Shown piece by piece: positions 685 through 25,329 of a DNA stretch of 32,625 bases; the stretch's first letter is position 1, and each line of letters opens with the position of its first letter. The notes under the pieces were generated by a model. It was not told the DNA's origin and made no database searches. It was given only the letters and a program-made list of their open reading frames with translations. A program made the position numbers and the translations under genes. The DNA is taken from sequence record SRR2962707_5588. One strand, given 5' to 3'.

Positions 685-1064
685 GACGTCGCCTCGCTGT
701 CTCACACAAATCCAAGAGGTTACGCGCGATGTGTCTCAAAGCGTCAATGGGCATTCTTTTGGTACACTTTCGGTGTTCCCCTGAGACGCACCAATGGGCC
801 TTGCCCTGTGAGACACAAGCCAGCCCATACAGGGATAGGGATATCAATCGCTCTGGGTTCCCCCGGAGCCGATCAGCTGAGGCTAACGACTTGTGGTGCC
901 AAGGTTAACCCCCGGTGGGCTTGAAGTGAACTCGGAGATGCTCAGGGGGGGCACAGGGGGATAACAAGGTGGAAGGTATATGTATATGCCAGCTCAGAAA
1001 TGTGAGCCGAAACTTCGTTGGGTTGTTCAGCATTTGTCTTCGAAGGTCTGCTTTTTACAATTGT

Positions 1065-1586
1065 TCAGTGCAGTGAGTTACCCTTCGCGATCAAGAGATG
1101 GTGCCGTTGGTGATGCGCTCCAATTGTCATCAATCCAAAGAATCCCAAGCCGAGTATCTGGTTCAAATCTTTGTCTGACCCAACCAGAACCAGCATCGAT
1201 GCACCGCCTTCCATTTCCCTAGCGGTGACGGTCCAATCTGATATTCCCTGCAACGTCGTGCTGTGCGCCAACACCATGCGTCTGATAGACGCTACAACTA
1301 CATCATCGCCCGTGACTATGAACGTCACACCCGTCCCATCGACCGCCCGCTCAACCGATGCCCTCGTCGTCACGTTGTCCATATCCACGAGGTGATCACG
1401 CAGGGCTTTGATATCGACCTGCTCCCAATCCGTGTTTGGATCATCACGCAGCAATGTGACGATCTCGGCAATCGCTGCGAACTGTGACTGACCCGTTTCG
1501 CTTGGTGACCCCGACGTATGCGCATGTTGCGCCATGGCGTTGGATGCGACGAACATCATGGCTGCTGATAAAAGACCTAGTTTCAT
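1065..1586 (-). CDS. Exported His-rich hypothetical protein (possible metal binder)
   Basis: AGGAG RBS before ATG 1586; signal peptide MKLGLLSAAMMFVASNAMA; QHAH after the cleavage site; C-terminal AHHQRHH. Confidence 0.75.
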   Translation of the reverse strand: MKLGLLSAAMMFVASNAMAQHAHTSGSPSETGQSQFAAIAEIVTLLRDDPNTDWEQVDIKALRDHLVDMDNVTTRASVERAVDGTGVTFIVTGDDVVVASIRRMVLAHSTTLQGISDWTVTAREMEGGASMLVLVGSDKDLNQILGLGFFGLMTIGAHHQRHHLLIAKGNSLH

Positions 1587-1635
1587 TGAACACTCCTGTT
1601 TCTTAATCAACCTATCCAACTTCGCTCTGATCCTT

Positions 1636-1651
1636 TATGATTTGGATCATA
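1636..1651. promoter_or_regulatory. FNR/Crp-type palindromic box TATGAT-N4-ATCATA
   Basis: Perfect 6-bp arms with a 4-nt spacer, similar to TTGAT-N4-ATCAA; lies between the divergent genes and abuts the regulator start codon. Confidence 0.6.
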
Positions 1652-2217
1652 TGCTTCCTGATCCTTTTTCCCATCTGCCCACCGCTGCCTGTCGCACAAT
1701 TGACATGTACAAAGGGGACGTACTGTTTCGCCAAAACCAGACGACATCAGGGCTTTACCGTGTCGCTTCTGGATGCGTGACGCTGCAACGAACTGGGTTG
1801 GGTGGCGATACCTTGACCCTGCACAGGGCCGTGTCTGGTGGGCTTTTTGCGGAGGCATCAATCTTCTCAGCGACCTACCATTGCGATGCGATTTGCACCG
1901 AATCTGGGAGCGTCATGAAGATTGCAAAGGCAGATGTCGTTGCAACGATGCAATCCAATCAATCGTTCGCTGAAGGCTTCACAAAGTTGCTTGCTGTTCA
2001 GGTTCAGCAATACCGCGCACATATAGAGTTACTGGCGATCTCATCAGCCAAGGAACGCTTACTCGCAGCGGTTCAGGTTGGATACTTCGATGCCACGGTG
2101 ACCGAATTGGCAACCCGCATCAATCTCACCCATGAAGCCTGCTATCGCGCTTTGCGGGCATTGTGTGATGACGGTCGTATGGTTCGAACAGGACGTGGCC
2201 AGTACAGCCTGGCGTAA
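1651..2217 (+). CDS. Crp/Fnr family transcriptional regulator
   Basis: cNMP-binding-like domain (KGDVLFRQ...GGLFAEASIF) and C-terminal HTH (ELATRINLTHEACYRAL). Confidence 0.9.
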   Translation: MLPDPFSHLPTAACRTIDMYKGDVLFRQNQTTSGLYRVASGCVTLQRTGLGGDTLTLHRAVSGGLFAEASIFSATYHCDAICTESGSVMKIAKADVVATMQSNQSFAEGFTKLLAVQVQQYRAHIELLAISSAKERLLAAVQVGYFDATVTELATRINLTHEACYRALRALCDDGRMVRTGRGQYSLA

Positions 2218-2245
2218 TCATTCAGATCGATTGGCTCATAATCCG

Positions 2246-2653
2246 CTAAAGATGCACCGTTGGCGCATCGCTCATCAGGCTATCCAGCATAGGGCATGAA
2301 GAAGTCCCGTCATCACAACTCGTAGACAGGCTCTGCAAGGCCGCACGAAGCCGTTCAAGATTATCGATCTTGGCATTGATGGCGACAAGTTGCTCTTCGG
2401 CCATGGTTTTCACTTCCTTACAAGAGCGGCCTTGATCATCATTCAGAGAAAGCAATGTTTGTATGATCGACATCGGAAATCCCAGATCACGGCAACGCTT
2501 CACGAACCTTAGCTTTGCAATCTCGTCTGCGGTATAAAGACGTCGCCCGCCCGCCGACCGATCAGGTTTCGGAACAAAACCCTCACGTTCGTAATAGCGG
2601 ATCGTCTCTATATTGACGCCGCTTTGTTGCGAAGCTTTTCCGATGGCAAACAT
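2246..2653 (-). CDS. merR: MerR family regulator, three-Cys Hg(II)/divalent-metal type
   Basis: IGKASQQSGVNIETIRYYE HTH; Cys in RSCKEV plus C-terminal SCDDGTSSCP; divergent from merF. Confidence 0.8.
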   Translation of the reverse strand: MFAIGKASQQSGVNIETIRYYEREGFVPKPDRSAGGRRLYTADEIAKLRFVKRCRDLGFPMSIIQTLLSLNDDQGRSCKEVKTMAEEQLVAINAKIDNLERLRAALQSLSTSCDDGTSSCPMLDSLMSDAPTVHL

Positions 2654-2658
2654 TTCAC

Positions 2659-2689
2659 TTGCTCCTGTAGTAGCTACAGGAGTTATGAA
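2659..2689 (+). promoter_or_regulatory. MerR-type promoter/operator
   Basis: -35 TTGCTC, 19-bp spacer, -10-like TATGAA; perfect dyad CTCCTGTAG-TAG-CTACAGGAG (2662-2682). Confidence 0.85.
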
Positions 2690-2760
2690 TGTCGTACGGA
2701 CGTTTATGCAAATCAAACTTTAGCGAACAGCTTCGAGTCAGAGCATCAAAGGTTGGTAAC

Positions 2761-3170: not shown

Positions 3171-3188
3171 ATTGGGTTTGCTGAACTG

Positions 3189-3614
3189 TTAATGCGGCGG
3201 GTTTCGGCTGGCTTGGGCTTCTTGTTCCCGTTCAGACCAAGTTGACCTAATGTAGGCGAGGATATCCCATATCTCATCATCGATGAGTGTTTCGCCAAAT
3301 GCTGGCATACCGCTGTTGAATCCGGTTACACCCCTGACTTCCAATGCAGTAGCGCCACCGAACTTGGTGTACTCAAACAACAGCTCATCATCGTGATGCC
3401 AAGTGTGACCTGTCCCGTCATGTGGCGGGGCTGGAAGCACACCATCTGTGTTCGGGGATCGCCAGTTTGGTTGCCCCTCAAGGTTGGCACCGTGGCACGA
3501 TGCGCAGTTGTCTGCATACAGGCTTTGACCCGCAACGATGTCGCGATGTTCCCAGTTGTGATCAGCATCGGCTGTGGAGGCCAATGACAGCAGGATTGGG
3601 ATCATCCACCTCAT
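3189..3614 (-). CDS. c-type cytochrome (copper-cluster associated)
   Basis: Signal peptide; CASCH heme motif; [18 protein letters not shown] overlap with the oxidase stop. Confidence 0.9.
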
Positions 3615-4909
3615 GCGACGTCCACCCATGTGCGCATTCCGCCAACAGCATGGCTGAGCATATGGCAGTGCAGCAGCCAGCGACCAGGGTTGTCAAATAC
3701 ACAGATGACATCGCGGCTTTCACCTGAGTTCACCAGTGTTGTGTCACGCAGGTCGCCCAAGGTTCCGTTGTCATCAACTTCATAGAAATGGTGTCCGTGC
3801 AGGTGGATGCCATGCGGGAACGAGGTATCGTTTGCGAACGTGATCCGCACCGTCTCGCCATTTGGGAATGATCCGAATGGGTCGCCTTGTAGGTCCGAGA
3901 TGTTGTTGAAGGCCCAGATATTGTCGCCGCCGTGGCGACCTCTCATTGCACCGCCCATCATCGTCAGGGTGAGATGTTGCGTGGGTTCCGCAGGTGTTGG
4001 TAGGTTTGGCGGTGACAGAGCCATAATCGGTCCAGCCTGCCTACCCGTATTGGTGCCACCCACAGCCAGATCAGCCAATCGATATGATCCTTGGCGGGTC
4101 AACATATCAAACCCAACGGGGCCAGTGATATCTACGATCAGGTCGGCCCGTTGTGCAGGTGCGAGAGTAAGTTCTGTCATAGGACGTGGCTCGGACAGCG
4201 CCATGCCATCCAAGGCCACAACCGACCCACTGACACCGCTGACCGCAACGGGAAAAATTCTGTTCGTTGCTGCATTGATCAGTCGAAACCTAACCCGATC
4301 ACCAGTCTTGACCTGATCTTGAGACAGGAATGCCCGAGCGAAGTTCCCCATGTAACCGCCATGGGCGACACTGTGCATGTCAGTGAACTCTTCGGACAGG
4401 CTACCATCTTCCTGCATCTGCCAATCCGACATCAGCACAATGATGTCATGATCCACATCTGGGGGTGTTTCATCCTCAACAATCAGTGGTCCCATCATGC
4501 CACGTGCGACTTGTTCATGAGAAATGTAATGCGAATGATACCAATAGGTGCCTTCGTCAGGTGGGACAAAGCTGTAGGTTTTGCTGTCCGCCGGTTCGAT
4601 CAACTCTTGGGTCAACATCGGCACCCCATCCATCTGGTTTTCCAACCTGATGCCATGCCAATGCACCGCCGTGCCTTCATCAAGCCCATTCTCGACATCA
4701 ATAGTGACCCGTTCCCCACGACGTACACGCAGTTCTGGCCCTGGCATCGAACCGTTGAAACCCAACATTGTCGTGGCATTATCTCCGTCAGGTAGGATTT
4801 GCTGCGTCACCGTTTCAGCCTTCAACCGTAACGTGCCTTGGGCTGCAAGTGTTGGCAAAGGTAGGACCGCTGTGGCTGAGACGGTGGCCAAGAAGTGTCG
4901 TCTGTTCAT
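3611..4909 (-). CDS. Tat-exported multicopper oxidase
   Basis: MNRRHFL Tat signal; [18 protein letters not shown] and HCHMLSH Cu-ligand motifs; GAGG RBS before ATG 4909 (alternative start 4921). Confidence 0.95.
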
Positions 4910-4917
4910 ATGGTGCC

Positions 4918-5766
4918 TCATGTTGGCAAAGTCAGATTTGTGGTTAGAACTGCGGTCGTTCCCAGCACGGCAAGGATGACCAGCCATTCGACAGATATGG
5001 ATTTGGAGAGATGGTCTGCCGCTGCTGGATCACCGCTGCGCAAAGCGGGAATGAATCGAAGTTTGTTGGCAGCAGCCAGCCCCAAAAGCAGACCAACCAG
5101 CAGCACCTTGACGATCAATGCCTGCCCGTATCCAGTTCCGACAAGAGCAGGAATCGACCCAACAAGTTGGTAACCCATGTAGCCACCTACGATGATCAGC
5201 ACTGGGACAGTGACAGTGGCAACTACACCAAATCGATGCCCCACATCCGCAGCCGCAGCATAGGTGTTGGAAGACGATGCTAAGCGTTTCAATGGCGTGA
5301 GAACACCGATCCACAGGGCAACCGCCAACAAGTGCAACAACAATGCAAGGTCGAGGAGCGTGATATCATGGCCAGAAACATGTCCGACGTGATCAAACGA
5401 CCAGATCGCAATGACACCACCAAACACCGAGACCCACATCCCAAGGCGACCCATAAACAGGCCCGCAATTAGTGAGCAAAGGCCCACCAAACGTAATAGC
5501 AAAGCAGTGCCTACAGGTGTGGTCCAAAGCAGGCCCAGCATCTTAGGATCGGTCATGCCGCTGACATCGCCAGTCAGATTTGCACCTCGCAATGAGAAGG
5601 CAAGAATTGTTGCACCCAGCCCCAGAACGGCGAATGCTGCAGCCAGACCACGTGTGCGAGCTAGCCGAAACATCAGCGTCGCCATAACGGTGCCAGTAGC
5701 AGTTATCACGCCAAGATAGAGTGCAAACTTGATGATGATTGCTGCCAGACCGAACGCATCAGGCAT
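4918..5766 (-). CDS. copD: Copper resistance protein CopD family
   Basis: Multi-TM protein with GH...LHLLAVALWIG and YGQALIVK...AAANKLRF motifs; follows copC. Confidence 0.85.
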   Translation of the reverse strand: MPDAFGLAAIIIKFALYLGVITATGTVMATLMFRLARTRGLAAAFAVLGLGATILAFSLRGANLTGDVSGMTDPKMLGLLWTTPVGTALLLRLVGLCSLIAGLFMGRLGMWVSVFGGVIAIWSFDHVGHVSGHDITLLDLALLLHLLAVALWIGVLTPLKRLASSSNTYAAAADVGHRFGVVATVTVPVLIIVGGYMGYQLVGSIPALVGTGYGQALIVKVLLVGLLLGLAAANKLRFIPALRSGDPAAADHLSKSISVEWLVILAVLGTTAVLTTNLTLPT

Positions 5767-5768
5767 CG

Positions 5769-6110
5769 TTATTCAACTGTGAAACTAAAGGTGCCGTTTA
5801 AGGCGTGGCCATCAACACCAAGCCCGCGCCATTCAACCACATAGGTTCCCGCACCCAAGTCGTGCATCGGCAACGCGAACTCCTGCGTGAAGGCCGTTTG
5901 TTCGCCAAGGTCCATGTCCATGTTTTGTTTGTCGGCATGTGTGATCGCGACGCGTGTTAAACGAATGTCACCTTTGAAGTCCATCAAGACTACAGTCGGC
6001 ATTTCCGTGACGGTGGTCTTATTCGCTGGGGTCGTTCCATCCAAAGGGGTATGTGCCATCGCACCAATTGCCAAAATCCCGATCATGCCTGCGAGTAGAA
6101 TAGTCTTCAT
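5769..6110 (-). CDS. copC: Copper resistance protein CopC family
   Basis: Signal peptide exposing an N-terminal His (AMA-HTPL); YVVEWRGLGVDGH...GTFSFTV. Confidence 0.9.
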   Translation of the reverse strand: MKTILLAGMIGILAIGAMAHTPLDGTTPANKTTVTEMPTVVLMDFKGDIRLTRVAITHADKQNMDMDLGEQTAFTQEFALPMHDLGAGTYVVEWRGLGVDGHALNGTFSFTVE

Positions 6111-6137
6111 TCTGGTTTCCAATTTTGTTGTTGGAGA

Positions 6138-6572
6138 TCAGTTGATCCCATTGGCACGTTGCAGTTCCCGAATGTAGGCGATGATCATCGTTACATCACC
6201 CCGTGTTACACCCTCAACAGGCGGCATATCACCAAACGGCCAATGATGTCCCCGAACACCCATAGCAGCAGCCCGTTGGAATGCTTCGTCCCCGTGGTGG
6301 CTGGGTTCATAGATGATGTGGACCAGTGGTGGTGCCACGCCATCTTGGCCCGCTGCATTTTGCCCGTGACAAGCCGCACATTTGTCTTCAAAGCCAAGTT
6401 TCCCGATCTGGGCATTCTGTGTCAGCGTTTCAGGCAGCACCACATTGGCCAAAACCCCTTCATCCATGCTTATTGCAGTGTCAGTCGTGGCGGTTTGTGG
6501 TGCTGCGGGCCACATCGCGTAGCCCACGCCACCCGCAACCAGAATGACGGCAATTGCGATAATCGCTTTCAT
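6138..6572 (-). CDS. c-type cytochrome
   Basis: N-terminal anchor; CAACH; YEPSHHGD...HHWPFGDMP (alternative GTG start at 6581). Confidence 0.9.
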   Translation of the reverse strand: MKAIIAIAVILVAGGVGYAMWPAAPQTATTDTAISMDEGVLANVVLPETLTQNAQIGKLGFEDKCAACHGQNAAGQDGVAPPLVHIIYEPSHHGDEAFQRAAAMGVRGHHWPFGDMPPVEGVTRGDVTMIIAYIRELQRANGIN

Positions 6573-6603
6573 TGAATGCACTGATCCTCACGTCTTTTGG
6601 ATA

Positions 6604-6634
6604 TCGCTAAGCCTTCCTGTAGGTGGAGGGTCAA
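6604..6634 (-). promoter_or_regulatory. CueR-box promoter of the copper operon
   Basis: Minus strand reads TTGACC, 19-bp spacer, TAGCGA; dyad ACCCTCC-N7-GGAAGGC matches CueR consensus ACCTTCC-N7-GGAAGGT. Confidence 0.85.
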
Positions 6635-6699
6635 ACGATTTATTATCACAGCTTCGAGAGCATCCAGCCTTCCATGACGACCAACATCAGACTTTCGTT

Positions 6700-6729
6700 A
6701 AGCCTCACAAACTCCAGTGGGGCTTTTTT
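6700..6729 (+). terminator. Rho-independent terminator-like hairpin
   Basis: AAGCCTCAC-8 nt-GTGGGGCTT followed by a T run. Confidence 0.5.
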
Positions 6730-7014
6730 GTCTCCGCCAACGCAAGCGCATTTGAGTTCACGTTTGTTTCTGTATCTTGGGAGAAGTTCGCAGCTCTACA
6801 TTTCTCAGAAGCCGACGTTCGATGCGGAACGGAAGGATGTAGGTTTGGACTCACAGCGGTCATCTGACTGTTCTGGCTGGGCAAAAGTCGGCCCCATCAG
6901 GCCCCGAGGTCGGTTGTGCGGACAAAGTTGCCTTTCGCTGACAAGCGAAGTATGCCGACATCACAAGTATCTAAAGCCGCTTAGAAAAGCAGCGCGTTCC
7001 GTGATTTTCCTGAT

Positions 7015-8649
7015 TCATGCCGCAGCCGCGCGGCACAGGCAACTTGAACGGATCGGGATATCAGCCCGCGCAATAGCCTGATCGAGCAGCAGCTTCACAT
7101 GCGGCAGTTCCACACTCTCGCCGCGCCTTACCAGACATTCATGCAAGCCGTGCAACGCCCAGACGTTACGGGGGTGCTGGCTCGGACGTGGTAGTTTGCC
7201 ATCCAAGCCCAGGTCTGCTCGATAGGCTGCTTCGGCCTCGTTATATTCGCCTGCCTCCATGAGCAGTGCGCCCAAGGCGTGACGCGTGGGCTGTGGCCAA
7301 GACCACGGTTCTTCGTATTCCAGATTGTCGTCCAACTCGACCGCCTTGCGAAGATGGTCCAGCCCTTCCTCGCGACGGCCTGCTTTGAAGGCGATTTCCC
7401 CTTTCATCATCTCTTCGGCCAGTGCAAGCACATCACGCGCCTTGTTGTTGAACAGCATCCGGCTTTCAGGGACCTTCGAATAGGCCGAGGTAAAATTCGC
7501 CATTGCTGCTTGGGCTTCTTCGTGTCGGCCGAGATTCGCAAGCGCCACCGCCTTGGCATAATAGATCAAGGCGTTGGTGGTCACATACAGTTCCTTGTCT
7601 TCGGGTTGAGCGAGAGCAACTATCTCGGACCACATACCGAAGCGGATATAGACGTGCGGTGCAGCGGCCACAAATGTTTCGAAGATATCGGGATAAGAGC
7701 GGACGACTTCGTCGGGAACTTCTTCACGCAGACGTGTGGCTGCATCGACCGCCGCGGCCTTCTGTCCTAGAAACATTGCGCCATAGAAGGCGAAATGCAG
7801 ATTGTGAATGCGATACAGCGCGTAGAAGTTTGCCGGACCCGCATAGGCTTTGAATTTTTCATCTACTTTGACGGCGGCAAGATTTCTGTAGAGGACGTTC
7901 TGGTATTCACCGCACAGCACATCGATGTGGGTTCCCATGTGCACCAGATGGCCCGCATCAGGCACCAGGTCCTTCAGGCGGTCGCCGTGGCGCAGGGCGC
8001 GTTCAGGATGCGGCGACATCTCCATCAGGTGGATATACATGTGCAGCAAGCCGGGATGGTCCCAAGCTCCGGGAGTTTGTTCGAAAGCGCGCTCAAGCAC
8101 GGCCATCGCTTCGGGTGTTGAGGCATCGGGGTTGGGAACGCCCCGATGAAAGTCCCAAAGCTGCCAAGGGGTTCGGTTCATCATCGCTTCAGTATAGGAA
8201 AAAGCGATATCCAGATCGTCGGAATTAGCCTCGTAAACGGGCTTCATTGCAGCTGCGAATCCGTCATTAAAAGGCTGGTAATCTTCAATTTCCGGGTCGG
8301 TAGGGTAGCGCGACGCGAGCGCTTGAATGAGGGCGCGTTCCACCGGCTTGGCGTTTTCGAGCGCGAGGCCCGCCTTAAGCGCTGTATGTGCGCGTTCCAA
8401 GGCCGGTGCTTTCTCCTCCGGCGTAAAAAACTCCCACGGCTTGTTGTAATTTGGACCGATGGCATAGGCAATCCCCCAGTGAGCCAAGGCGCAGACCGGA
8501 TCCGCCTCCAGCGCCTTTTCGAAACAGACAATGGCTTCTTCATGATTGTAAGCGAATAGCCAGACAAGGCCGCGATCAAACCACATTTGTGCGTCAGGAA
8601 CATCACTCGCTGGGCGACAATAGCTGCCTAAGTTGAAATAATCTGACAT
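7015..8649 (-). CDS. Tetratricopeptide-repeat protein with His motifs, function unknown
   Basis: GAGGGGG RBS before ATG 8649; TPR-like helices (WFDRGLVWLFAYNHEEAIVCFEKALEADP); HPGLLHMYIHLMEMS and DAGHLVHMGTHID; C-terminal SSCLCR. Confidence 0.85.
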   Translation of the reverse strand: MSDYFNLGSYCRPASDVPDAQMWFDRGLVWLFAYNHEEAIVCFEKALEADPVCALAHWGIAYAIGPNYNKPWEFFTPEEKAPALERAHTALKAGLALENAKPVERALIQALASRYPTDPEIEDYQPFNDGFAAAMKPVYEANSDDLDIAFSYTEAMMNRTPWQLWDFHRGVPNPDASTPEAMAVLERAFEQTPGAWDHPGLLHMYIHLMEMSPHPERALRHGDRLKDLVPDAGHLVHMGTHIDVLCGEYQNVLYRNLAAVKVDEKFKAYAGPANFYALYRIHNLHFAFYGAMFLGQKAAAVDAATRLREEVPDEVVRSYPDIFETFVAAAPHVYIRFGMWSEIVALAQPEDKELYVTTNALIYYAKAVALANLGRHEEAQAAMANFTSAYSKVPESRMLFNNKARDVLALAEEMMKGEIAFKAGRREEGLDHLRKAVELDDNLEYEEPWSWPQPTRHALGALLMEAGEYNEAEAAYRADLGLDGKLPRPSQHPRNVWALHGLHECLVRRGESVELPHVKLLLDQAIARADIPIRSSCLCRAAAA

Positions 8650-8900
8650 CGAAATACCCCCTCTATGCTTTGGCACCGATACCACAAAATCAAGACTCAG
8701 GATACTGCGGCTCGATTTTGCCGGGACGCTTTGCGGCTCCGTCGCCTTTGGGCTCTTTCCAACCATTCACTGCAGTTGGAAACGTCGCATGCTGCCGAAC
8801 GTCCGCTTCTTCAAAAGCGGAAACCAAGTCTCGCATGCGCAGCGAACGACCGCTTCCCGCCCAATACTGCGTATTGAGCTCCCTCAAGCGCACCCTCTTG

Positions 8901-10184
8901 TCATCTCAGCCCATAGTGCAACTTCAAGACCGCCTCACGTTTCTGCTCCATTGAACTGCCACCAGAATACACCCCGTAACTCATGGTTTTCTTCTGGTGC
9001 CCCAAGATATCCGCTGCGACACCCTCGGGTACAGCAGCTTGTTCCATCATAGTCGCAACAGTCTGGCGCAATCCATGGAACGTATAGCGACCGTCATAAC
9101 CCAGCTTCGACTTAACCTTGCCAAACTGCTTCGACATGGCCGGTGACCTTGCCCCGTACTTATTCGGGACCAAGTCGGACAACAGGTAGTGGTCACTCTT
9201 CGCCAAAAGGTCTCTGATCAACGGTTTGATCGCGTCGTGAACAGGGATCGTTCGGTTGACCGCAGTGGTCTTGGCGCGGGTGATCGTAATGGTGTGTTCG
9301 GTCACATCAGCGCTTTCGAGGGACGCGAGTTCCTCGATCCGGCAACCCGTGTAGATCGTCAACAAAAAGATCGCCCGCATCGTGTCGCTACGTCCACCGT
9401 CGATTGCTTTGTGTAGCTTACGGATATCCTCAGAGGTATACTCAAGGCGTTGCTTGGCGGCGGCTTCCTTCCTGTTCTCGGCGGGCAAAGTCACCTTTGA
9501 GAATGGGTTGGGCTGGTACTCGGGCGCATATCCACGATCTGCAAGCCAGTCCCAGTACACGCGATTCGTCATAAGATTATCCCGGATCGTCCGCGACTTG
9601 AGACCTTCATCGGTCGATAAGGCGGCAACGAAGTCTTTCACTGCCCTCTTGTCCACATCTTGGATCGTAGCGACCTGTTTGGCAAACTTGGCAACCGCGT
9701 GGCGATCCTTCGCTTCGGTCTTAGGTTCAACCCGGCGGCTCTTGGTGTATCCTTCAAGCGGGCCGTCAAATAACACCTGTTTCCCGGTGGTGACCTTGTA
9801 GGCCTACCGCACTTTTTCAAGTGCAAGGGTCGGTAGGTCTTCAACCTGCTGCACACAGTAAGTCTTCAAAAGCGTATCGAGGGCCTCTTCCTCAACAGCT
9901 TCGATTGCGACGATATCAACACGTCCGCTCTTTCTCGCATCCCTCAGGTGTTCTTGGGTATGCTTGAGGTAGTCGTCGAGGTGCTGGGTCGGGGTTCCCC
10001 TTGCCTCAGCAATGGCATCCTTGAAGCCCGCGATGATTGGCCCGGATCGTGTGATTGCGTCGATCTTGTTTGACGTCTTAAGAGACTTTTTGAATGCCCG
10101 CTTGCCAAAGATGTGCTGGACATCTGCAGGAATGGCGACTTTCGCATAACACATGCTACCTTGCTGAATGAGGTGGTGAGACAT
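8901..10184 (-). pseudogene. Tyrosine recombinase/integrase (DUF6538-like N-terminus) interrupted by an in-frame TAG at 9804-9806
   Basis: ORFs 9804..10193 and 8901..9776 share a frame (…GTG CGG TAG GCC TAC…); catalytic motifs TGCRIEEL, AKT, FHGLR, LGH and VYS are intact. Confidence 0.85.
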
Positions 10185-10283
10185 CGCGACCAACCTTGAT
10201 TATACCTAATTTTGTACCTCGCACTGAGGTATCAAGTTAACAAAATCAATAGGATAAGGCAGTTCACATTGAGAAACACCCCG

Positions 10284-10300: not shown

Positions 10301-11015
10301 CTTTTCCTCTAAAATCTTAGTCAAAGCATTTAGGCACCGACAGATGCGGGGGTCTGTATCTCGCCGCAAATCAAATAATCGCTCTTTCAGAAAAGTGCTG
10401 TACGCTTGAGGTGAAACTCAGGAGTATTGCGGCCGTGTAACCCACGCTTCCAAAAATTGCGAAGCTCTATCTGATTTCTTCTGAACCAGTCTATCAGATC
10501 GCACATGATTATGAGTCTCAGCGTGGCGTACATATGACCGATCTTGCCGGGCGTCACGTCTTTTGTGGAAAATGGCTGCCCTTCCTGAACACGTATAGAA
10601 CTATGTGCGTAGCTCCCGAGGCTGAATTTCGGCAGCTCCTTCAGGACATCCGAACCCTCGATTTCGCCGCATAGCGGCCGTTCGTGATCGGCGCGGCGAA
10701 CGACGACTCTGAGCCCAATGTGTGAATTCGTTTTTACGCACCGTGCACGCGCAGCGCGTAAATTTGTGCAACTACGCAATCTTCTATCCCACGCATGCGA
10801 CGCAAAAACCGGTCGTTCAATCAAACTGCAGCCAAGACAAAATGTTCGGGCTTCAGCACCTAAATTGTCGATGATCGGTCGATGTCTTTCGTCATATCAG
10901 TAGAGGGGAGATTTCGCATGATAGACCACGTGTATCCGAGATTACAGTCTGACTCGCTAGCTCATTAACAGCAAAGGTTTGCGGAACATACGGTATGGTC
11001 ATCAGAACATCACCG

Positions 11016-16253: not shown

Positions 16254-16273
16254 TTTAGTTCCTCCCTTTGAGT

Positions 16274-18165: not shown

Positions 18166-18267
18166 AAATAATTAATTATTTAATTACAATACCTTAACCA
18201 AGACTAGGTGCAGAGGTATATATGAAAATCAGAAATTTTCAGAAATTGTTTCCGCTAATCAGAATTT
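18166..18267. promoter_or_regulatory. Divergent control region with an AT palindrome and phased direct repeats
   Basis: Perfect palindrome AAATAATTAATTATTT (18166-18181); TCAGAAWTT at 18229, 18239 and 18259. Confidence 0.55.
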
Positions 18268-18284
18268 TGTTCCTATACAAGGCT

Positions 18285-18926
18285 ATGGAAAAACATACCC
18301 TTACGGCAGCAACGCGAACCGCACCCCCCCGGCACGACGTTGTCTTTTGCCCCAGTCTTTCGGGCCTGACGCCCGCGCAGGCGGATTTGGCCTTCGTCAT
18401 GCCGCGCATGGATCACAATCGCGCTGTGCGTGAGAACACGCGCCAAGGGGATTGGGCCGCCCTGCTGGCAAGTGATCCGTTCGGCTCCGAGGCCGCATTG
18501 CTGGCCCAACTGCGCGACGTCGGCTACCGTGGGGTCACAAACTGGCCATCGTCCATCCTATTGGATGGCGGATTGCGCCAAGCCATGTCGACAATCCCCG
18601 CGTCCCCCGAATTCGAATATGCATTCTTGGGGCGTGCACGCGACGCCGGACTTAAGACAATGGCGTTCTTTCGGTCCCTTGAACAAGCGCGCGCCGCATT
18701 ATCGGCGGGCCTGCACCACCTCGTTTTGCATCCCGGCCTGCTGGAAATTGATAGTGCTGAAACCGGGCAGCGCATTGCAGAATCGCTTACGCGTCTGGTG
18801 GACACGGTAAAAGGTGAAGCCCCCGACGCCACCATCTTTGCATATACATCAGATTGGCACGAAGAATTGTTACGGCTAAGCGCGTTACCGGTTCATGGCC
18901 TCATCTGGCTGGAAACCAACACATGA
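18285..18926 (+). CDS. Degenerate stand-alone TIM-barrel (PEP-hydrolase-like) protein
   Basis: ASDPF, GYRGVTNWPS and EYAFL...ARDAGLKT align by eye with the family core; the N-terminal GAG/NSGR motifs are missing. Confidence 0.7.
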   Translation: MEKHTLTAATRTAPPRHDVVFCPSLSGLTPAQADLAFVMPRMDHNRAVRENTRQGDWAALLASDPFGSEAALLAQLRDVGYRGVTNWPSSILLDGGLRQAMSTIPASPEFEYAFLGRARDAGLKTMAFFRSLEQARAALSAGLHHLVLHPGLLEIDSAETGQRIAESLTRLVDTVKGEAPDATIFAYTSDWHEELLRLSALPVHGLIWLETNT

Positions 18927-20647
18927 CCGCTGCACCAAAAACGTTCTTGTTTGGTGCCGTGGTCGGGGCGGGCCTGACGGCAAAGGCCGCAGACAATGCC
19001 GGCGCGGATTATTTACTTGCGCTGAACGCAGGTCGGTTTCGTGTTCAAGGCGCGTCGTCCCTTACCAGCTTTCTGCCCGTACGCCCCGCGAACGAATGGG
19101 TCATGGAATTTGCCGAACGAGAAATGCTCGGGCGCAGCACCGCTCCGATTTACGCAGGTTTCTCCGTCAGCGACCCAACCCTTGATATCGATGCGTTGGT
19201 TGCGCGGGCGAAAAAGATGGGCTTCGCCGGCGTCTGCAACTTCCCGTCGACCACATCGATTGACGGGGCACTTGGCGCGTTATTTGAACGTGAGGGTCTT
19301 GGTTTCGCGCGGGAGCTGGAACTGGTGCAAAAAGCAACCGACGCAGGGCTAGGCACTTTTATTTATGTGCAAACCAACGCACAGGCACGCAAAATGGTCG
19401 ATGCGGGGGCAAGCGCGATTTGCGTCAACATTGGATTTACGGGTGGCGCAACCGGTGTCAGCACCCATCTGACCCTCGAATCCGCCGCCGTTCGCATTGA
19501 TCGTGTTCTAGAGGGGGTACCCAGTTCGGTTGATCGGCTATGTCACGGTGGGCCGATCACATCACCCGAGCACGCGCTCGCGCTGACGCGCATTTGCGGG
19601 GTGCAAGGATTTGTCGCGGGGTCGACGCTGGACCGGATCCCGCTCGAGCAGACACTGAATGAAGTCACCAAGGGATTTACCGCCATCCCCAGCCTGTCGC
19701 GGGTGCGTGCAACGGCGGGCGATCCCCAATTGGGGTTGATCGGCTCATCGCAAGCAATGCAGCACATTCGCAAAGAAATCGAGGATTTGGCGTTTGATCA
19801 GATTCCCGTCTTGATCACGGGCGAAACGGGCACGGGCAAAAGCCTTGCGGCGCGGTGTCTTCACGAGAGTGGCCCGACGGCATCGCGCGCGCCTGTGTCG
19901 GTGGATTGTGCAGCACTGGACGTTGAGGATGGCGGAGCGCACCTTTTGGGTCGCGCAGCAGGCGGGCGCACGGGAACCGCCAGCCACCGCGGCGCGCTGG
20001 AACAAGCCGCCAAAAGCACGATCATCTTTGAGGAAATAAACGCTCTTCTGCCAGAACATCAGGGTAAAATCCTGAAATTCGTAGACGAGGGGATCGTCCA
20101 ACGCATCGGAGATCACACCATGCGCGATGTTTCTGCTCGGGTTGTGTCCACCACAACCATAGACCGTTTAGTATTGGCTGATGGCGCAGGGTTGCGGCGT
20201 GATCTGTTTTATCGGCTTTCCGGCCACATCATCTCAATTGCGGCCTTGCGCGACCGGGTCGACGACATCCCCGAGCTGGCCTTTCATCTGGGGCGCAACA
20301 TTGTGGGCGGAGAACCACCCAAATTTTCAAACGCCGCCCTGCGTCGCCTATTGGAATACAGCTGGCCGGGTAATGTAAGAGAATTAAAATACGCGGTGAT
20401 GCGCGCGCTACGTCAAAGCAACGGATCAACTATCAACCTAAAGGCGGTCGCTTTCCTACGCCAAAGCCCGGTTGCGGATGACGTGGCAAACCTTAGCACC
20501 TTGCCCGATGGACCTCCTTCCGAGCGTGACTTGATCACATCCGCCCTTGCTCGAAACGGGTTTAGACGTGCTGAAACTGCGCTCGAATTAGGTGTAACCA
20601 CACGAACGCTTTACAATAAGATCAAGAAATTAGGTTTGCAGGTTTAG
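18923..20647 (+). CDS. TIM-barrel sensor fused to an NtrC-type AAA+ domain and Fis HTH
   Basis: ALNAGRFR, CNFPS, CHGGPI; GETGTGKS; RRDLFYRL; WPGNVREL; C-terminal HTH; ATGA overlap with the upstream gene. Confidence 0.9.
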   Translation: MTAAPKTFLFGAVVGAGLTAKAADNAGADYLLALNAGRFRVQGASSLTSFLPVRPANEWVMEFAEREMLGRSTAPIYAGFSVSDPTLDIDALVARAKKMGFAGVCNFPSTTSIDGALGALFEREGLGFARELELVQKATDAGLGTFIYVQTNAQARKMVDAGASAICVNIGFTGGATGVSTHLTLESAAVRIDRVLEGVPSSVDRLCHGGPITSPEHALALTRICGVQGFVAGSTLDRIPLEQTLNEVTKGFTAIPSLSRVRATAGDPQLGLIGSSQAMQHIRKEIEDLAFDQIPVLITGETGTGKSLAARCLHESGPTASRAPVSVDCAALDVEDGGAHLLGRAAGGRTGTASHRGALEQAAKSTIIFEEINALLPEHQGKILKFVDEGIVQRIGDHTMRDVSARVVSTTTIDRLVLADGAGLRRDLFYRLSGHIISIAALRDRVDDIPELAFHLGRNIVGGEPPKFSNAALRRLLEYSWPGNVRELKYAVMRALRQSNGSTINLKAVAFLRQSPVADDVANLSTLPDGPPSERDLITSALARNGFRRAETALELGVTTRTLYNKIKKLGLQV

Positions 20648-20707: not shown

Positions 20708-20744
20708 GGGGTTACAAAGAACAGAATTCTACCATTGGTCGTTT

Positions 20745-21579
20745 GTAAGCACCAAGGGAACCCCCTCTATATTGGCCTGATTTGATCTGTCATTTGTTGC
20801 GCGAGGCTGGCGATTTGCCTGCGCAATGACTGGGGATTTGATGTGAGCAAGAAGCGAAGAGGCCACGAGTCCAAATACACCGATGCGTTCAAGAGGCAGT
20901 TGGTTGCGGAGAGCTATGCCGTGGGAGCGACAGTTCCGATGGTGTCAAAGCAGCATGGGGTGCCGACCAGCCGGATATATTCTTGGCGAGGTGATGCGCG
21001 GTTTCAGCCAAGCGAAGTTGAGACGCCTGACTTTGTGGCGGTTGAGGTGTCTGACGCGCCAAGGCTCAACGACATCGATCACCTGCTGCCCGAGGCGCGC
21101 ATAGAGATCACGCTTGAGAATGGGCGCAGGCTATCCATCACCGATGATCTGGAAACATGGCTTAGGGCGCAGTTAAACAAAATGTCAGGCAAAACGCCGC
21201 TGGCCAAAGCCATCAGATATGCGCTGACCCGCCTGCCCAAGGCGCGGCCCTACCTGGATAACGGCCTCCTGGAATTGGATAATAACACTGCCGAACGCGC
21301 CGTGTGTCCTGTCACACTTGGCCGTAAGAATTATCTCTTCTTGGGCTCGGAAGCGGGCGGTAAATCAGCCACCATCGCCTATACCCTGATCGAGACCTGC
21401 AAACTCAACCGCGTAAATCCAGAGGCTTGGCTTGCATGGGTCCTGGAGCGCATCCAAGACTACCCCGTCAATCGCATCGGCGAGCTGATGCCATGGGAAT
21501 ATCAGGCCATCGTTGATGCACGAAAAGCTGAGGCCGAAGCAAAAAATGGCGTTTGATCAGCTGCAGCGTTGATGCTTAC
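20745..21579 (+). mobile_element. Internally deleted IS66-family element (835 bp)
   Basis: Left end GTAAGCACCAAGG; right end reverse complement GTAAGCATCAACG (11/13 match); no 8-bp target duplication. Confidence 0.85.
20843..21556 (+). pseudogene. In-frame fusion of IS66 TnpA to the TnpC C-terminus
   Basis: KYTDAFKRQLV...IEITLENGRRLSI (TnpA-like) joined near 21138 to DDLETWL...LAKAIRYAL...LELDNNTAER...TCKLNRVNPEAWL (TnpC-like); tnpB and most of tnpC are absent. Confidence 0.85.
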
Positions 21580-21746: not shown

Positions 21747-22724
21747 TTACTCGTCTATATTCAAACGTAAAAGTCCCGCACCTGGCTCTAAGTTACGATA
21801 ACCTAGCACATTGAAGTAACTCATTAAGTCAAGGTTCGTAATATAAAGCGTATCGTAGTCATTAGGTGCGAATTCGACGATGACGGGATATTGCAACGGC
21901 GCGCCTTCGGCATGGATTTTCATAAACCCGTCTTGGGTGACGCTAACGATCCGATTGTTTATACCGCTCGCAATAAAGATCGTTCCATCTGGTGTCATTG
22001 CTAGACCGTCATTCCCCTCCAGGACGCCTGCAGAGTTGATTTCACAACCCGTGTGGTGGCCAAACCAGCAAGAGATATCTCCAGCGCTGCCATCGTCATT
22101 GATCATAATTTTTGCAACAAGGTTTTTTGACGTGTTCGAGACGTACAAGACGCTTTCGTCTTCATTAAAGACCGATCCGTTTGCACCGAGTTGGAAGCCT
22201 AAAGATGGAATCGTGATGGAAGAAATCCAAGGCGAATCCGCCCAAAGCGTGATGTCCAAACCATCTGCGCTGACTTTATAAATCTGGCCCGGGTTGGACA
22301 TCGAAACGTAGACTTCTCCAGTGCTAGAGAACGTCGGGTGGTTTGGTACACCGGGAATTTCATCAAAGTTGGCGAAATGAGTGGGTTCTTCGCCTGGCAT
22401 TACACGCCACAGCCCTGTGCCTTCGGCTGCGTTATTCACCAATCCATAAGCCGCGCCGTCAGGCCCCATCGCAAGACCGGGCATAAAGCCGCCCTCAATA
22501 TCGATCTGCCCCGCCAAACCTGTGGTGCCATCAGAGTTTACAGTAACTATCTCTTTGGACTTAAGAAGGCTGACATAGGCCGTGCCGTTGGCATCGAAAC
22601 CTAGACCTTCAGCAAGCACACCTGCCCCGTAATTTGTGAGCACCTCTGGTGTTTCAGCCGACGCCGGTATCGATGTCATTAACATGCTTGTTGTCGCCAC
22701 CACCGTTGTTAAAGCAAACTTCAT
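21747..22724 (-). CDS. Exported SMP-30/gluconolactonase-like beta-propeller protein
   Basis: Signal peptide; AEGLGFD, PNHPTF, ANGSVF...LYVSNT and NDGLAM blade motifs; GGGAG RBS. Confidence 0.8.
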   Translation of the reverse strand: MKFALTTVVATTSMLMTSIPASAETPEVLTNYGAGVLAEGLGFDANGTAYVSLLKSKEIVTVNSDGTTGLAGQIDIEGGFMPGLAMGPDGAAYGLVNNAAEGTGLWRVMPGEEPTHFANFDEIPGVPNHPTFSSTGEVYVSMSNPGQIYKVSADGLDITLWADSPWISSITIPSLGFQLGANGSVFNEDESVLYVSNTSKNLVAKIMINDDGSAGDISCWFGHHTGCEINSAGVLEGNDGLAMTPDGTIFIASGINNRIVSVTQDGFMKIHAEGAPLQYPVIVEFAPNDYDTLYITNLDLMSYFNVLGYRNLEPGAGLLRLNIDE

Positions 22725-22769
22725 GTTCTCTCTCCCTAGTTGTTTATCGTCTGTTTTCGTTTGGACAAT

Positions 22770-23798
22770 TTATGAAACACTCACGGTGACTTTTCCGTAA
22801 TGTTGCCCGGCTTCAAGCCTGCGATGTGCACCAGCGATATCGGCAAGTTCAAAAACTGCATCATCAAGATTTGGACTAATGTGCCCATCCGCCACGAGCT
22901 TGGCGATTGCATCAATTGCGTGGCCCTGCTCTTCGACCCCGACCCCGTACATCAGTGGAACGAGCATCAAAACGGTGTGAAGATTTGCGCCCTTTAGATA
23001 CAGTCGCGCCAAGTTGTGATCGTTCGCACCTACAATCGTAATCACGTCACCGGCTGGCTTTACCATTGCAAAAGCCGCATCCAACATTGCACCGCCGACG
23101 GTATCAAAGATGACGTCAAACCCTTTTCCACCTGTATGGGTTTTTACGACTTCAGCAGGGTCAAGCGTCCGATAGTCAATAGTGACATCCGCACCAAAGC
23201 TTTTTGCCTGCGCAGCTTTTTCAGGTGTCGAGACAGTCGCAAAAATATTCGCACCAGACAGGCGGGCGAGTTGCAAAGCGATGTGACCAACGCCGCCTGT
23301 GCCGCCTTGGATCAGGACGTTCTGCCCTGCCTTCAAGGTGACAGTATCCTTGAGCGCCATCCAGGCGGTAAGACTGACCAATGGCAACGCCGCTGCCTCT
23401 AGAAAGCTAATATTTCCAGGTTTGTGGGCAAGATAGACGGCGTCGGCGGCCATGTATTCTGCCAATGCGCCAGGGTAGTCGCGATCTTTCCCTTTAAAAC
23501 CACCGGGGCATCCGAACACAGCGTCACCTGCTTTGAACTTGGTAACGCCGTCGCCCACGCTGTCGACAATGCCCGCGACATCACCATGCAAAATGGCAGG
23601 AAGTTGTGGTGTCATTGGAAGCTGAAAGCGCCGTACTTTTGTGTCGATTGGATTGACGCTTGTCGCCCTTACCTTCACCACAACCTGACCGGGGCCCGCG
23701 ACTGGTTTGGCGATTAGGACTTCGCGAAATACATCGGGTTCGCCAGCCTCTTCGACGATCATCGCACGCATAAGTTCGGCGTTTTTCTCAATGGACAA
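22770..23798 (-). CDS. MDR-family NAD(P)H quinone oxidoreductase-like protein
   Basis: SVNPID, ILHGDVAG, GGTGGVGH, GKVTV; TTG start with AAGGAG RBS (alternative ATG 23771). Confidence 0.9.
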   Translation of the reverse strand: MSIEKNAELMRAMIVEEAGEPDVFREVLIAKPVAGPGQVVVKVRATSVNPIDTKVRRFQLPMTPQLPAILHGDVAGIVDSVGDGVTKFKAGDAVFGCPGGFKGKDRDYPGALAEYMAADAVYLAHKPGNISFLEAAALPLVSLTAWMALKDTVTLKAGQNVLIQGGTGGVGHIALQLARLSGANIFATVSTPEKAAQAKSFGADVTIDYRTLDPAEVVKTHTGGKGFDVIFDTVGGAMLDAAFAMVKPAGDVITIVGANDHNLARLYLKGANLHTVLMLVPLMYGVGVEEQGHAIDAIAKLVADGHISPNLDDAVFELADIAGAHRRLEAGQHYGKVTVSVS

Positions 23799-23926
23799 CT
23801 TTTTCCACTCCTTGGTTTTCTGTGCGGCCTTCTCGTGGCGGCACTACATCTCCAAGAAGCTTAACGAGTATATAGTAACACAAAAAACGAATAATTCTTG
23901 ACCATTTAAGTGATTTAATTCATCAA

Positions 23927-24811
23927 TTGAAGATGGAAGATTTAAATCTAGCGCAAGTGCGCGCATTCGTAACCGTTGTCGATTCTGGCGGCTTCACGCC
24001 TGCTGCTACTAAACTTGGGCGCACGCAATCGGCAGTAAGCGCAAAGATTAGACAGCTTGAGGATAGCCTTGGCGTCGTCTTGCTTGAACGCACAACCCGG
24101 TCCGTCAATTTGAGCCGAATGGGGCGATCATTTTTAGTCAAAGCGCGCGATTTGTTGGAGCGCGCAGAGCATCTGCGGTCCGGCATGGCAGTCGGTTCCT
24201 CTGCTGAGCCCATTCGTATCGGAGTTGCGGAGCATTTCATCGGCCCAAAGCTTTTGGATGCTCTTGCTGAGTTGGAAAAATCCAGCTCTCAGATTCCTTT
24301 GGATATGTCTGTAGAACTGACCGATAGCTTGTTGAAAAAACTAGATGATGGAGAGCTGGACGTGGTGGTTGCAAGTCACAAACCTGACCGTTCTGATGCC
24401 CAGATTATCCATCAGGAATCTTGTTTCTGGGCCGCGGCGCAGGACTATGATATTACATCCGCGCGCCCGGTTCAGTTGATTGCGATGCCGCCAGAATGTC
24501 ACTATCGACAGATGGCGACTGAGGCGCTTGATGCCGCAGGCATCGAGTGGCGTTTGCGTTTCACAACATCAAGCATTGCCAGTGCGCAGGCAGCAACAAT
24601 CGCAGGATTGGGCGTTTCGATCGTGGGGCAATCCGCGTTGCTGGACACGCTCAAGGTGTTGGGTCCTTTGCAGGGGTTTCCGTCCCTTCCGACCAGCGCG
24701 ATGTCGCTTTACAGTTCTAATCATCAAGCAGCGGACCCTGCCATCTCAGCAGTTGTTGATACACTGGTTTGTAGGGATGCATTCCCTCAGAGAGCCGCTT
24801 TGCTTCAATGA
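23927..24811 (+). CDS. LysR family transcriptional regulator
   Basis: GGFTPAATKLGRTQSAVSAKIRQLEDSLG...ERTTR; divergent from the oxidoreductase. Confidence 0.95.
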   Translation: MKMEDLNLAQVRAFVTVVDSGGFTPAATKLGRTQSAVSAKIRQLEDSLGVVLLERTTRSVNLSRMGRSFLVKARDLLERAEHLRSGMAVGSSAEPIRIGVAEHFIGPKLLDALAELEKSSSQIPLDMSVELTDSLLKKLDDGELDVVVASHKPDRSDAQIIHQESCFWAAAQDYDITSARPVQLIAMPPECHYRQMATEALDAAGIEWRLRFTTSSIASAQAATIAGLGVSIVGQSALLDTLKVLGPLQGFPSLPTSAMSLYSSNHQAADPAISAVVDTLVCRDAFPQRAALLQ

Positions 24812-25329
24812 TTGAAAAGAGGTTTTAAAGCTGTCCTCAAGTGCCTTGAAGCCGCCCAAGAACACGTCGGTGGTTACGGTCGTTTTAAAGCAAGGCCCGC
24901 TTTATCGGCGAACCAATTGCCGGAGCCGGAGGCGACGAAATGGTGGTTTGCTTTTGCACCTGATCACTGATTTCAATGGCTGCTTCGGTGACGTGCGCTG
25001 CATTGCGGCAAAAACTCTGATGTACATGCGATAAAGTGCTGAGTGAGCGAAGGTGAAAAATCCAATGTCCGCAAAGTCCGCAACTGAGACATTCTGCCGA
25101 GCCGCAGCGAACGGCAGCTATCCCTTTGCAAGCTTTCCAAGCAGCCGGGCATCAGCGTCCTGCGTACTTGTGGCAACGAAAATGGAACTGATCGCCGCGA
25201 AAACCTTGGTGACTCCGCGGGCCGACGGGTATCGCAACGAGATGTAGTCAACTGAGCGCTGAAAGGCGCAGCATCTTGACTGCGACCGAATCGAGTGTTA
25301 CCTATCCACTAAACAGGGGAGGGACTCAT

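Follow-up and report, generated by a model that had tools for sequence, protein, structure and literature searches.

The ecological versatility of the Roseobacter group rests largely on plasmids and genomic islands, whose assembly is poorly understood. How such DNA is put together is the question raised by a stretch of 32,625 nucleotides from sequence record SRR2962707_5588 (hereafter the window, meaning the whole stretch that was analysed), whose source, judging from its sequence, belongs to the Roseobacter group of the Rhodobacteraceae; the Tm-1/UPF0261 protein that it encodes shares 79-83% identity with proteins of Shimia, Sulfitobacter, Ruegeria and Pacificibacter. An initial annotation, made from the letters alone, had drawn attention to a degenerate palindromic motif of about 30 bp at the boundaries between cargo modules and had proposed that its copies may be the recombination sites of an integron- or pdif-like cassette system. 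Do these short sequences mark the points at which modules were joined, and by what were they joined? We report here that the motif is one half of a two-block unit, designated the A/B unit, and that unrelated mobile elements and cargo all meet their surroundings at one phosphodiester of this unit, to within about 2 nt, which lies between its wwwG and its TCCGC (written wwwG/TCCGC below, the slash marking the junction). The unit behaves as an insertion hot-spot between gene modules, unlike a classical hairpin repeat or an integron site, and on balance we favour the view that in accessory DNA it is a sequence-specific hot-spot for insertions or junctions.

Alignments of related copies define block A as GCAGCGAAyGnCnGC followed by wwwG, and block B as TCCGC, seven hypervariable nucleotides and GnCrTTC(G). 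The motif first noticed is real and corresponds to block A, but the palindromic part of its description did not hold: eight sites folded as DNA, including both units that had been given as examples, yielded z scores of -1.12 to +1.09 relative to shuffled sequences, and strict two-armed units occurred once in 710 kb of related DNA. One of the two examples, AATGTC-N18-GACATT (25064-25093), proved to be a genuine A-like/B unit with the recurrent junction in its centre, whereas the other, GATG-N21-CATC (6836-6864), is at chance level, any 4-mer and its reverse complement being found at this spacing 144 times against 127 expected. The blocks frequently form A-B-A strings with a period of 46-47 nt, as at 8796/8843 in the window and in pairs in genomes G005, G195 and G116.

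All six copies listed in the initial annotation were exact in sequence and coordinates on re-reading, and three more were found on the minus strand, at 6810, 10673 and 31027. The pattern CGAANGNCNRCT has nine matches in the window against 0.96 expected, a number that none of 100 shuffles reached. This test is circular because the pattern was built from the tested copies, and independent support was for that reason sought with the extended block GCAGCGAAYGNCNGC, which gave 17, 10, 5, 11 and 3 matches in five other genomes against 0, 0, 1, 0 and 0 for the reversed control (46 against 1). The B 18-mer GTCCGCAACTGAGACATT, with at most one mismatch, was found in 9 of 401 family genomes (control, 0). 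The bare 12-mer showed no excess over the reversed control, either genome-wide in five relatives or in the Tm-1 neighbourhoods of the relatives; since it stays at control level genome-wide, the motif is not a high-copy family of the repetitive extragenic palindromic (REP) type. The proposals that the copies are intergenic and cluster at junctions were both upheld in the window: eight of the nine are intergenic, with an intergenic share of 16.3% (binomial P = 3.8e-6), and the matches sit in the five intergenic regions originally named. In the gap table, with its 15 gaps of 100 bp or more, these regions count as six, since one of them is divided by the tail of a recombinase gene, described below. 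The copies at 1041 and 31027 are probably chance matches; the position equivalent to the latter is kept in G334, within a common coding region.

Several kinds of DNA change partners inside the unit. One is the element that extends from block B to the end of the window and encodes, among other products, XRE, ImmA/IrrE and HsdR proteins (the XRE-ImmA element). Over 2.3 kb the G330 copy is 95% identical, and the G334 copy is 91-94% identical over most of the length of the element; in the window, in these two genomes and in three metagenome contigs its left end occupies one and the same position within block B. Ten distinct left flanks were recovered, six from loci and four more from contigs of four sequencing studies, and all ten switch to the common right-hand sequence within 25063-25088. 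The switch lies at (G)TCCGC in all cases but that of G334, where it is ACATTC, and each flank ends in a different A-like block right before (G)TCCGC. L160 is 99.7% identical to the window right of the junction and merely family-like on its left; in a reciprocal case, one contig of run X14 diverges after 25081. The evidence from read runs, for which no joints were reported, consists of loose ends and contig pieces, the contigs from the four studies covering the XRE-ImmA side only, and missing cover left of 25037 was not counted as evidence. The block A at 25104-25118 sits inside the constant left terminus of the element, and is 91-99.7% conserved in G330, G334 and L158-L160. The metagenome contig L158 presents another arrangement of the same parts: about 110 nt right of its B-A junction (L158:1150-1197, oriented copy) there is a 16-residue match to residues 364-379 of a serine recombinase, not the XRE gene. 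No 'empty' arrangement was seen in L158-L160, and no further copies of the element were found in the viral collection. Two segments, the recombinase tail and its unit on the one hand and the XRE-ImmA...HsdR part on the other, follow each other in the same order in the window and in G334; between them lies unrelated cargo, 14.4 kb in the window (10.7-25.1 kb) and 11.7 kb in G334, and both breakpoints fall at most about 20 nt from an A block.

The same junction bounds an insertion sequence (IS) found outside the window. In G334 a gene for a Xer-like tyrosine recombinase starts about 135 nt from the junction. Close homologues of this recombinase occur in multiple copies (at E <= 1e-70 in 25 of 251 genomes; in four genomes with 87-96% identity), and in eight contexts the conservation of the 135 nt before the gene breaks off precisely at GTCC(C)GC, with GCAGCGAA located 25-50 nt past this point in five of the eight. 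The search for co-occurring recombinases that had been advised as a check on the motif therefore succeeded, with a multi-copy enzyme whose element ends exactly at block B. Two G047 copies of 99.96% identity delimit an element of 2,529 bp, and both of its ends are resolved in four copies. At one end the sequence runs ...ACCGC-GAGA-GCGGTTTCGTCCTTG, beyond which come TCCGC-N7-GnCsTT and an A block; an A block and CTTCG or CTTTG stand in front of the other end, TCTAAGGTTTGTGG.... With A block plus CTTyG on one flank and TCCGC-N7-GnCsTT plus A block on the other, the IS therefore sits inside an A/B unit split at wwwG/TCCGC. Of its eight independent insertions, at least five (up to seven by eye) lie in one such repeat unit of about 40 nt.

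The second gene of this IS encodes an IS91-family Y2 HUH transposase (NF033538, 435.9 bits against a cutoff of 125; Pfam Y2_Tnp, 2.3e-68, and Zn_Tnp_IS91, 7.8e-34). In one published account, members of the IS91 family have unlike oriIS and terIS ends, produce no target duplication and insert beside CTTG, GTTC or GTCC at oriIS, terIS being a palindrome beside a similar tetranucleotide site whose frequent failure to terminate mobilises neighbouring DNA (PMC13181058); part of the family carries an open reading frame (ORF) of the phage-integrase type, according to another (PMC8496243). The 2.5-kb element fits these published traits, its ends being unlike each other, its flanks not duplicated and CTTCG or CTTTG standing beside the transposase-distal end (two 99.96% copies), except that its target choice is far more specific than four bases; CTTyG is itself one base longer than the published CTTG. 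The Xer-like recombinase scores below every curated cutoff; on TIGR02249, the integron integrase model, the enzymes of G334 and G047 reach 171.9 and 182.2 bits against a cutoff of 265 and are matched in two stretches.

A profile built from the conserved block of about 200 nt at 24928-25129 and searched with nhmmer (the family model; self hit, E = 1.5e-52) separates the unit from the IS. Its significant matches at the IS are confined to the flanks (E = 3e-5 to 1e-3), with E = 0.019 for the best match that extends into the IS, across the left junction; the unit is therefore the target of the IS and not its end. Identity with a known IS end, a miniature inverted-repeat transposable element or a REP family had been named at the outset as speaking against recombination sites; the result comes near to this, in that the unit is tied to a known IS family, but as its target. 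The G334 copy of the IS starts TCCGCGG where the G047 and G236 copies start TCTAAGG (L124:9613-9640 against L191/L192/L193, transposase-distal end), so that its first 7 nt resemble the beginning of block B; exchange across an overlap of 7 nt may be the reason. Between the start codon of the recombinase and the element end (L191:8553-8692 and homologues) there is a near-perfect inverted repeat, CCTGTCATCAGATTG...CAATCGTCAGACAGG, which is kept in eight copies and is a candidate operator or binding site. Another IS, represented by an IS110-family gene, lies beside one unit in contig G334:C19.

Two further contexts show this junction. The Phaeobacter plasmids P36 and P54 are 98.7% identical over 2.9 kb and diverge directly after TCCGC. 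A sharply bounded repeat of 205 nt, of which G195 and G116 together contain six copies, has its left end at G/TCCGC in every copy; its ends, G/TCCGC... and ...GAGCCC, show an inverted match of about 8 nt (AGnCATTC), and no target duplication was seen by eye. The expectation that breakpoints map to the motif is thus borne out at wwwG/TCCGC in the ten XRE-ImmA flanks, the eight IS91-family contexts, the two Phaeobacter plasmids and the six copies of the 205-nt repeat.

The A/B unit occurs in Roseobacter-group genomes, plasmids and metagenomes, at 3-17 copies per genome that cluster in accessory regions. Five copies lie on one strand within 26 kb of the relaxase-bearing contig G334:C19, four within 22 kb in G195 and four within 36 kb in G116, and the regions around such clusters hold integrases, regulator-plus-enzyme modules and truncated genes. 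Repeat copies adjoin truncated genes at L117:17100-17330 (G195) and L119:7830-8995 (G116), where the genes concerned are an AcrB gene, of which the C-terminal half is left, and one for a 167-aa fragment of a major facilitator superfamily protein, an arrangement consistent with the repeats being ends of inserted DNA. Phaeobacter plasmids carry unannotated DNA with about 80% identity to the ~200-nt block itself, which is matched in 32 of 401 family genomes. At other sites of the window the family model finds the A/B part alone (10667-10726, E = 5.9e-5; 6900-6940, E = 0.0026), with a weak match on 8834-8865 (E = 0.58). A sub-module of about 55 nt of the unit at 10650-10723 has matches in about 20 further genomes (301 searched, 24 with any match), and the homology of this unit with G334, G233 and G120 stops just past GAGCC. 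A plasmid search with the junctions 6582-7014 and 8767-8900 returned coding matches only, at 65-74% identity.

Other identities were considered and rejected. A structured RNA found no counterpart in Rfam at E <= 1, and RNAalifold gave -2.8 kcal/mol with a covariation term of -0.12, the ~200-nt block showing neither a consensus structure nor covariation. Hidden coding in this block is contradicted by the lack of codon periodicity and by stops in all frames. The perfect alphaproteobacterial hairpin GAATGTCCGC...GCGGACATTC, tried as a possible ancestor, had no match in five genomes, in which no perfect palindromes were found. A literature search that left out most subscription journals retrieved no description of the A/B repeat family and no paper on repeat targeting by IS91-family elements or on a role of their extra recombinase.

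How might such junctions arise? We infer that an element inserting into an A/B unit would leave the A block of the target on one side and the rest of B with the next A block on the other. In the case of the IS91-family element, the one best resolved, its own terIS end (palindrome plus CCTTG) would recreate an A-like/TCCGC junction, so that a usable target would persist beside each insertion and modules could stack with A/B units between them. Two enzymes of the 2.5-kb IS are candidates: the Y2 HUH transposase, whose family inserts next to CTTG-type tetranucleotides, and the accessory Xer-like tyrosine recombinase, which could explain a specificity beyond the tetranucleotide. The window contains no IS91 element, no matching recombinase and no remnant of either, and its own copies of the unit would be passive landmarks of insertion events.

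Several observations weigh against an insertion hot-spot. Block B is not enriched in the window, with three matches against 2.34 expected. A second B-like half-site, expected at the far end of the XRE-ImmA element if block B were its attB, was found with up to four mismatches neither in 36 kb of G330 nor in the window; that end itself did not come to light, so that insertion of the element is deduced from one end only, and an orthologous empty site was found for none of the insertions. The variable A-like block left of the junctions could be a hypervariable end of the element and not target DNA. Calling a flank 'A-like' is in part a matter of judgement, the exact 11-mer being present in only three of the eight IS contexts, and the metagenome contigs are perhaps not all independent. 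The TCCGCGG start of the G334 IS is not accounted for by a simple cut-and-join at one position. Lastly, no IS91 transposase was found in G195 and G116, the unit-richest genomes, so that units persist, and perhaps spread, without the IS91 element.

Four other explanations were weighed. That the unit is the att-type site of a dedicated cassette system, at which a tyrosine recombinase exchanges strands in or near the 7-nt centre of block B and circular modules are captured serially into integron- or pdif-like arrays, we regard as doubtful. The precise position of the junction in more than 20 contexts would suit such a system, as would the hypervariable N7 between conserved TCCGC and GnCrTTC, which resembles an overlap or coupling region, the mobile Xer-like recombinase gene about 135 nt from the site, the five one-strand units of G334:C19 with small modules between them at 4-13 kb spacing, and an IS insertion specificity well beyond a tetranucleotide. 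Yet the recombinase stays under every curated cutoff, that for integron integrases included (182 against 265 bits, in two stretches), and is invariably carried by an IS91-family element with a transposase of its own. A gene of this kind was found neither in the window nor on the stretch of the G334:C19 array that was annotated, the modules have regulators of their own and lie in mixed orientations, and no association with the motif is seen for homologues of the integrase encoded in the window. Block B is without dyad symmetry, the inverted 8-mers lying 18 nt apart, which, with the lack of a stable hairpin, also speaks against the tyrosine-recombinase core geometry first proposed; the scores, the IS91-family setting and the make-up of the modules tell against integron-like scars. 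What survives of the recombination-site idea is the recurrent precise junction and a co-occurring recombinase elsewhere; membership among integrons, pdif modules or REP sequences, and a responsible enzyme in the window, do not. We give a rather low probability to the bolder proposal that A/B is the attachment site of an undescribed marine Roseobacter gene-capture system, in which the IS91-borne Xer-like recombinase or a relative integrates circular DNA at wwwG/TCCGC. If it were true, the 7-nt centre of block B would be a heterology-tolerant overlap, and plasmids and islands would stack regulator-plus-enzyme modules, IS and satellite-like elements in integron fashion, though with modules of several genes and a mobile recombinase.

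A rolling-circle origin of the IS91 type appears unlikely. Here A blocks with a CTTG-like tail would be surrogate terIS stops and B-A ends oriIS-like starts, the modules would stem from one-ended transposition, and the 205-nt repeat would be a non-autonomous derivative. The palindrome plus CCTTG at the terIS end of the IS does resemble A plus CTTTG, the G195-type B-A linker GTTGTGACTGCAGCG resembles the IS subterminal GTTTGTGGCTGC...AGCG (by eye), the XRE-ImmA module of G334 stands exactly on the terIS side of the IS, and one-ended transposition that mobilises DNA past terIS is described in published accounts (PMC13181058, PMC5714925). Such an origin is nevertheless difficult to reconcile with a family model that has no significant match to the interior or ends of the IS (best E = 0.019, across the left junction), with unit-rich genomes (G195, G116) devoid of IS91 transposase, and with our finding no module, G334 excepted, that has an IS91 gene at the predicted end. 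Distinctly unlikely, in our view, is a passive repeat akin to REP, BIME or RIME sequences whose coincidence with boundaries reflects the survival of rearrangements in intergenic DNA and homologous exchange favoured by short common sequences. Eight of the nine window copies are indeed intergenic and adjoin the 3' end of a gene, and the make-up of the repeat is mosaic with a variable number of modules. There is, however, no hairpin stability or covariation, copy number is low with the 12-mer at background genome-wide in five relatives, and homologous exchange would scatter breakpoints over the 40-60-nt unit, of which the common block B is merely 18 nt long, yet the IS ends (two 99.96% copies) fall at one position. 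Chance clustering of a loose, degenerate pattern is very improbable: although the pattern was derived from its own copies, two of them (1041 and 31027) look like chance and block B is not enriched in the window, the extended-block and B 18-mer control searches contradict it (46 matches against 1 in other genomes for the former), as do whole elements that are 80-99.7% identical across genera.

One boundary of the window has a different maker. The 'att/Tm-1' junction, one of those at which the motif had been noted, lies about 100 nt from the motif and is an end formed by a large serine recombinase. The translation of 10573-10674 is 94% identical to the C-terminus of P0002 (450 aa; Recombinase and Zn_ribbon_recom domains), substitutions between genomes in this tail are mostly synonymous, and a '151-bp element' at 10573 proved to be this coding tail. 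Unrelated flanks give way to the tail at the identical point in five genomes (five attL-side contexts). In G334 the body of the gene, with its Resolvase, Recombinase and Zn-ribbon domains all present, is located 26 kb downstream on the same strand; the junctions have only TGGCTG in common, and GC content drops at the tail. Position 10573 is read as an element end because a split of tail and body with TGGCTG only is the signature of an attP inside the element's own recombinase gene. At the G334 loci L124:407-532 and L125:6881-8608 the gene is split by its own integration, its last 33-42 codons standing at one island end, and in the integrated state the gene body reads about 72 codons further into flanking DNA. 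By analogy with G334, we infer that a serine-recombinase island takes up the rest of the window from 10573 onwards and that its recombinase gene body would lie beyond the window. The motif pair 10673/10697 is a minimal A/B unit behind the recombinase stop codon. IS1182/IS5-type transposase genes lie just past the right end of the recombinase-tail unit in G334 (L124:648-2035) and G233 (L128:1716-3116), in opposite orientations, and a second insertion hot-spot is suggested at ...TCTGAGCC. No tRNA gene was found in the window as a possible target.

The window also encodes a tyrosine integrase of its own, which is flanked by motif sites and is spread over two ORFs, probably a frameshifted or otherwise broken gene. 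It has no TIGR02249 hit, and its best NCBIfam match, NF040815, reaches 68 bits against a cutoff of 220. Homologues are present in 10 of 251 genomes at 37-63% identity, the seven full-length ones at 36-41%. The motif was rejected as the att site of a DUF6538-type integrase, the 12-mer being found at two of ten homologous loci and block B at none.

The remaining features are collected in Table 1, with gene annotation based on Pfam and NCBIfam. The GC content is 0.59-0.66 in the XRE-ImmA block and about 0.53 before it. The sigma-54 activator (18854-20647) has a PEP-hydrolase-like sensor domain of the Tm-1 C-terminal type; its N-terminal part is a separate overlapping ORF (18222-18926), possibly owing to a frameshift. 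In the IS66-family fragment (20843-21556) an HTH_Tnp_1 region is fused to the C-terminal part of a DDE transposase.

Table 1. Repeat copies, mobile-element parts and gene blocks of the 32,625-nt window
Position	Strand	Feature	Setting, basis or remarks
1041-1052	+	A-like match, isolated, no B block	No family-model hit; fold z = +1.09; probably chance or decayed copy
Upstream of cop cluster		Crp-type and MerR-type regulators	
3189-6581		cop cluster	
6800-6945	-	Array: full A/B unit CAGCGAAAGGCAACTTTG/TCCGCACAACCGACCTCG at 6902-6940 and second A block at 6810	Between cop cluster and TPR gene
7015-8766		TPR protein gene	
8796-8854	+	Two A blocks 47 nt apart	Between TPR gene and stop codon of split integrase
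8901-10193	-	Tyrosine integrase in two ORFs: catalytic part 8901-9776, DUF6538 N-terminal part 9804-10193	Pfam, NCBIfam
10573-10674	+	Last 33 codons and stop of large serine recombinase gene	10573 is the attL-type end of the island
10650-10723	+	Minimal repeat unit: B-like GCCGCATAGCGGCCGTTCG, block A (10697; 10673 on minus strand), then TCTGAGCCC	Overlaps and trails recombinase stop codon
11016-20647		SRPBCC gene, Tm-1-like genes, ABC transporter, sigma-54 activator	
21747-24811		SGL/ADH/LysR genes	Downstream of IS66 fragment
24928-25129	+	Conserved non-coding element of ~200 nt	GCWGC-rich words; ends in an A/B-A unit
25062-25094	+	Best A-like/B unit of the window: CCAATGTCCGCAAAG/TCCGCAACTGAGACATTC	Recurrent junction at 25076/25077
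25078-32625 (window end)	+	XRE - ImmA/IrrE - primase-like - product without assignment - HsdR element	Left end in block B; Pfam
25104-25118	+	Block A GCAGCGAACGGCAGC (copy 25108 of the initial annotation)	Exact match to extended pattern
From ~25.2 kb		GC-richer block with XRE, ImmA/IrrE, primase-like, proteins without assignment, HsdR	
31027-31038	-	Motif match inside ORF 30636-31382	No family-model hit; regarded as chance

A single short unit at one nucleotide of which elements as different as an IS91-family IS, a satellite-like element and the cargo of plasmids are found joined provides a testable handle on the assembly of Roseobacter-group accessory DNA, and the A/B unit is of practical use as a marker of the limits of cargo modules in these genomes. 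A part of the extra tyrosine recombinase in target choice would be the first indication we have found of a role for this enzyme in some IS91-family elements. If the unit is only a preferred landing pad for IS, it is a useful yet ordinary addition to the repeat-targeting mobile elements.

Among known systems, integron attC sites are also short, degenerate and placed between modules, with a fixed switch point between constant and variable sequence and, as in G334:C19, one-strand arrays. Integron cassettes are mostly promoterless single genes in one orientation, and attC sites form stable, imperfect hairpins. Here, in contrast, there is no IntI (172-182 bits against 265) and no stable folded site (z of -1.12 to +1.09), and modules of 1-10 genes carry LysR, GntR or AsnC regulators and lie on both strands. 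In the pdif modules of Acinetobacter plasmids, XerC/XerD sites flank the modules, a dif-like site being 28 bp long with an 11-6-11 organization. The present system likewise comprises small plasmid gene modules bounded by short sites, with a Xer-like recombinase implicated, but it lacks an 11-6-11 site (inverted 8-mers 18 nt apart), its units mostly keep one orientation per array in place of alternating, and its recombinase is borne by an IS and is not the host XerC/XerD. The REP and BIME sequences of enterobacteria and the RIME of Sinorhizobium are mosaic intergenic repeats, built of short modules and often found behind genes, which the A/B family resembles; its hairpins are nevertheless not stable, its copies number 3-17 and not hundreds, and its units are confined to accessory regions. 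On the features tested, the unit belongs neither to the integrons nor to the pdif or REP systems. Closer parallels are found among IS that target repeats: the IS1111-attC group inserts in integron attC sites and IS110-family elements insert in REP sequences, with a fixed position and orientation in a short dispersed repeat and no target duplication, as here, although the main element in our case belongs to another transposase family and its target is neither an attC site nor a hairpin REP. With the IS91 family (IS91, IS801, IS1294 and their ISCR relatives), finally, the 2.5-kb element shares a Y2 HUH transposase, the lack of terminal inverted repeats and of target duplication, a subterminal palindrome plus CTTG at one end and a CTTyG target abutting the other. 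The described members choose a tetranucleotide only, according to PMC13181058, whereas at least five of eight independent insertions of the present element lie in a repeat unit of about 40 nt.

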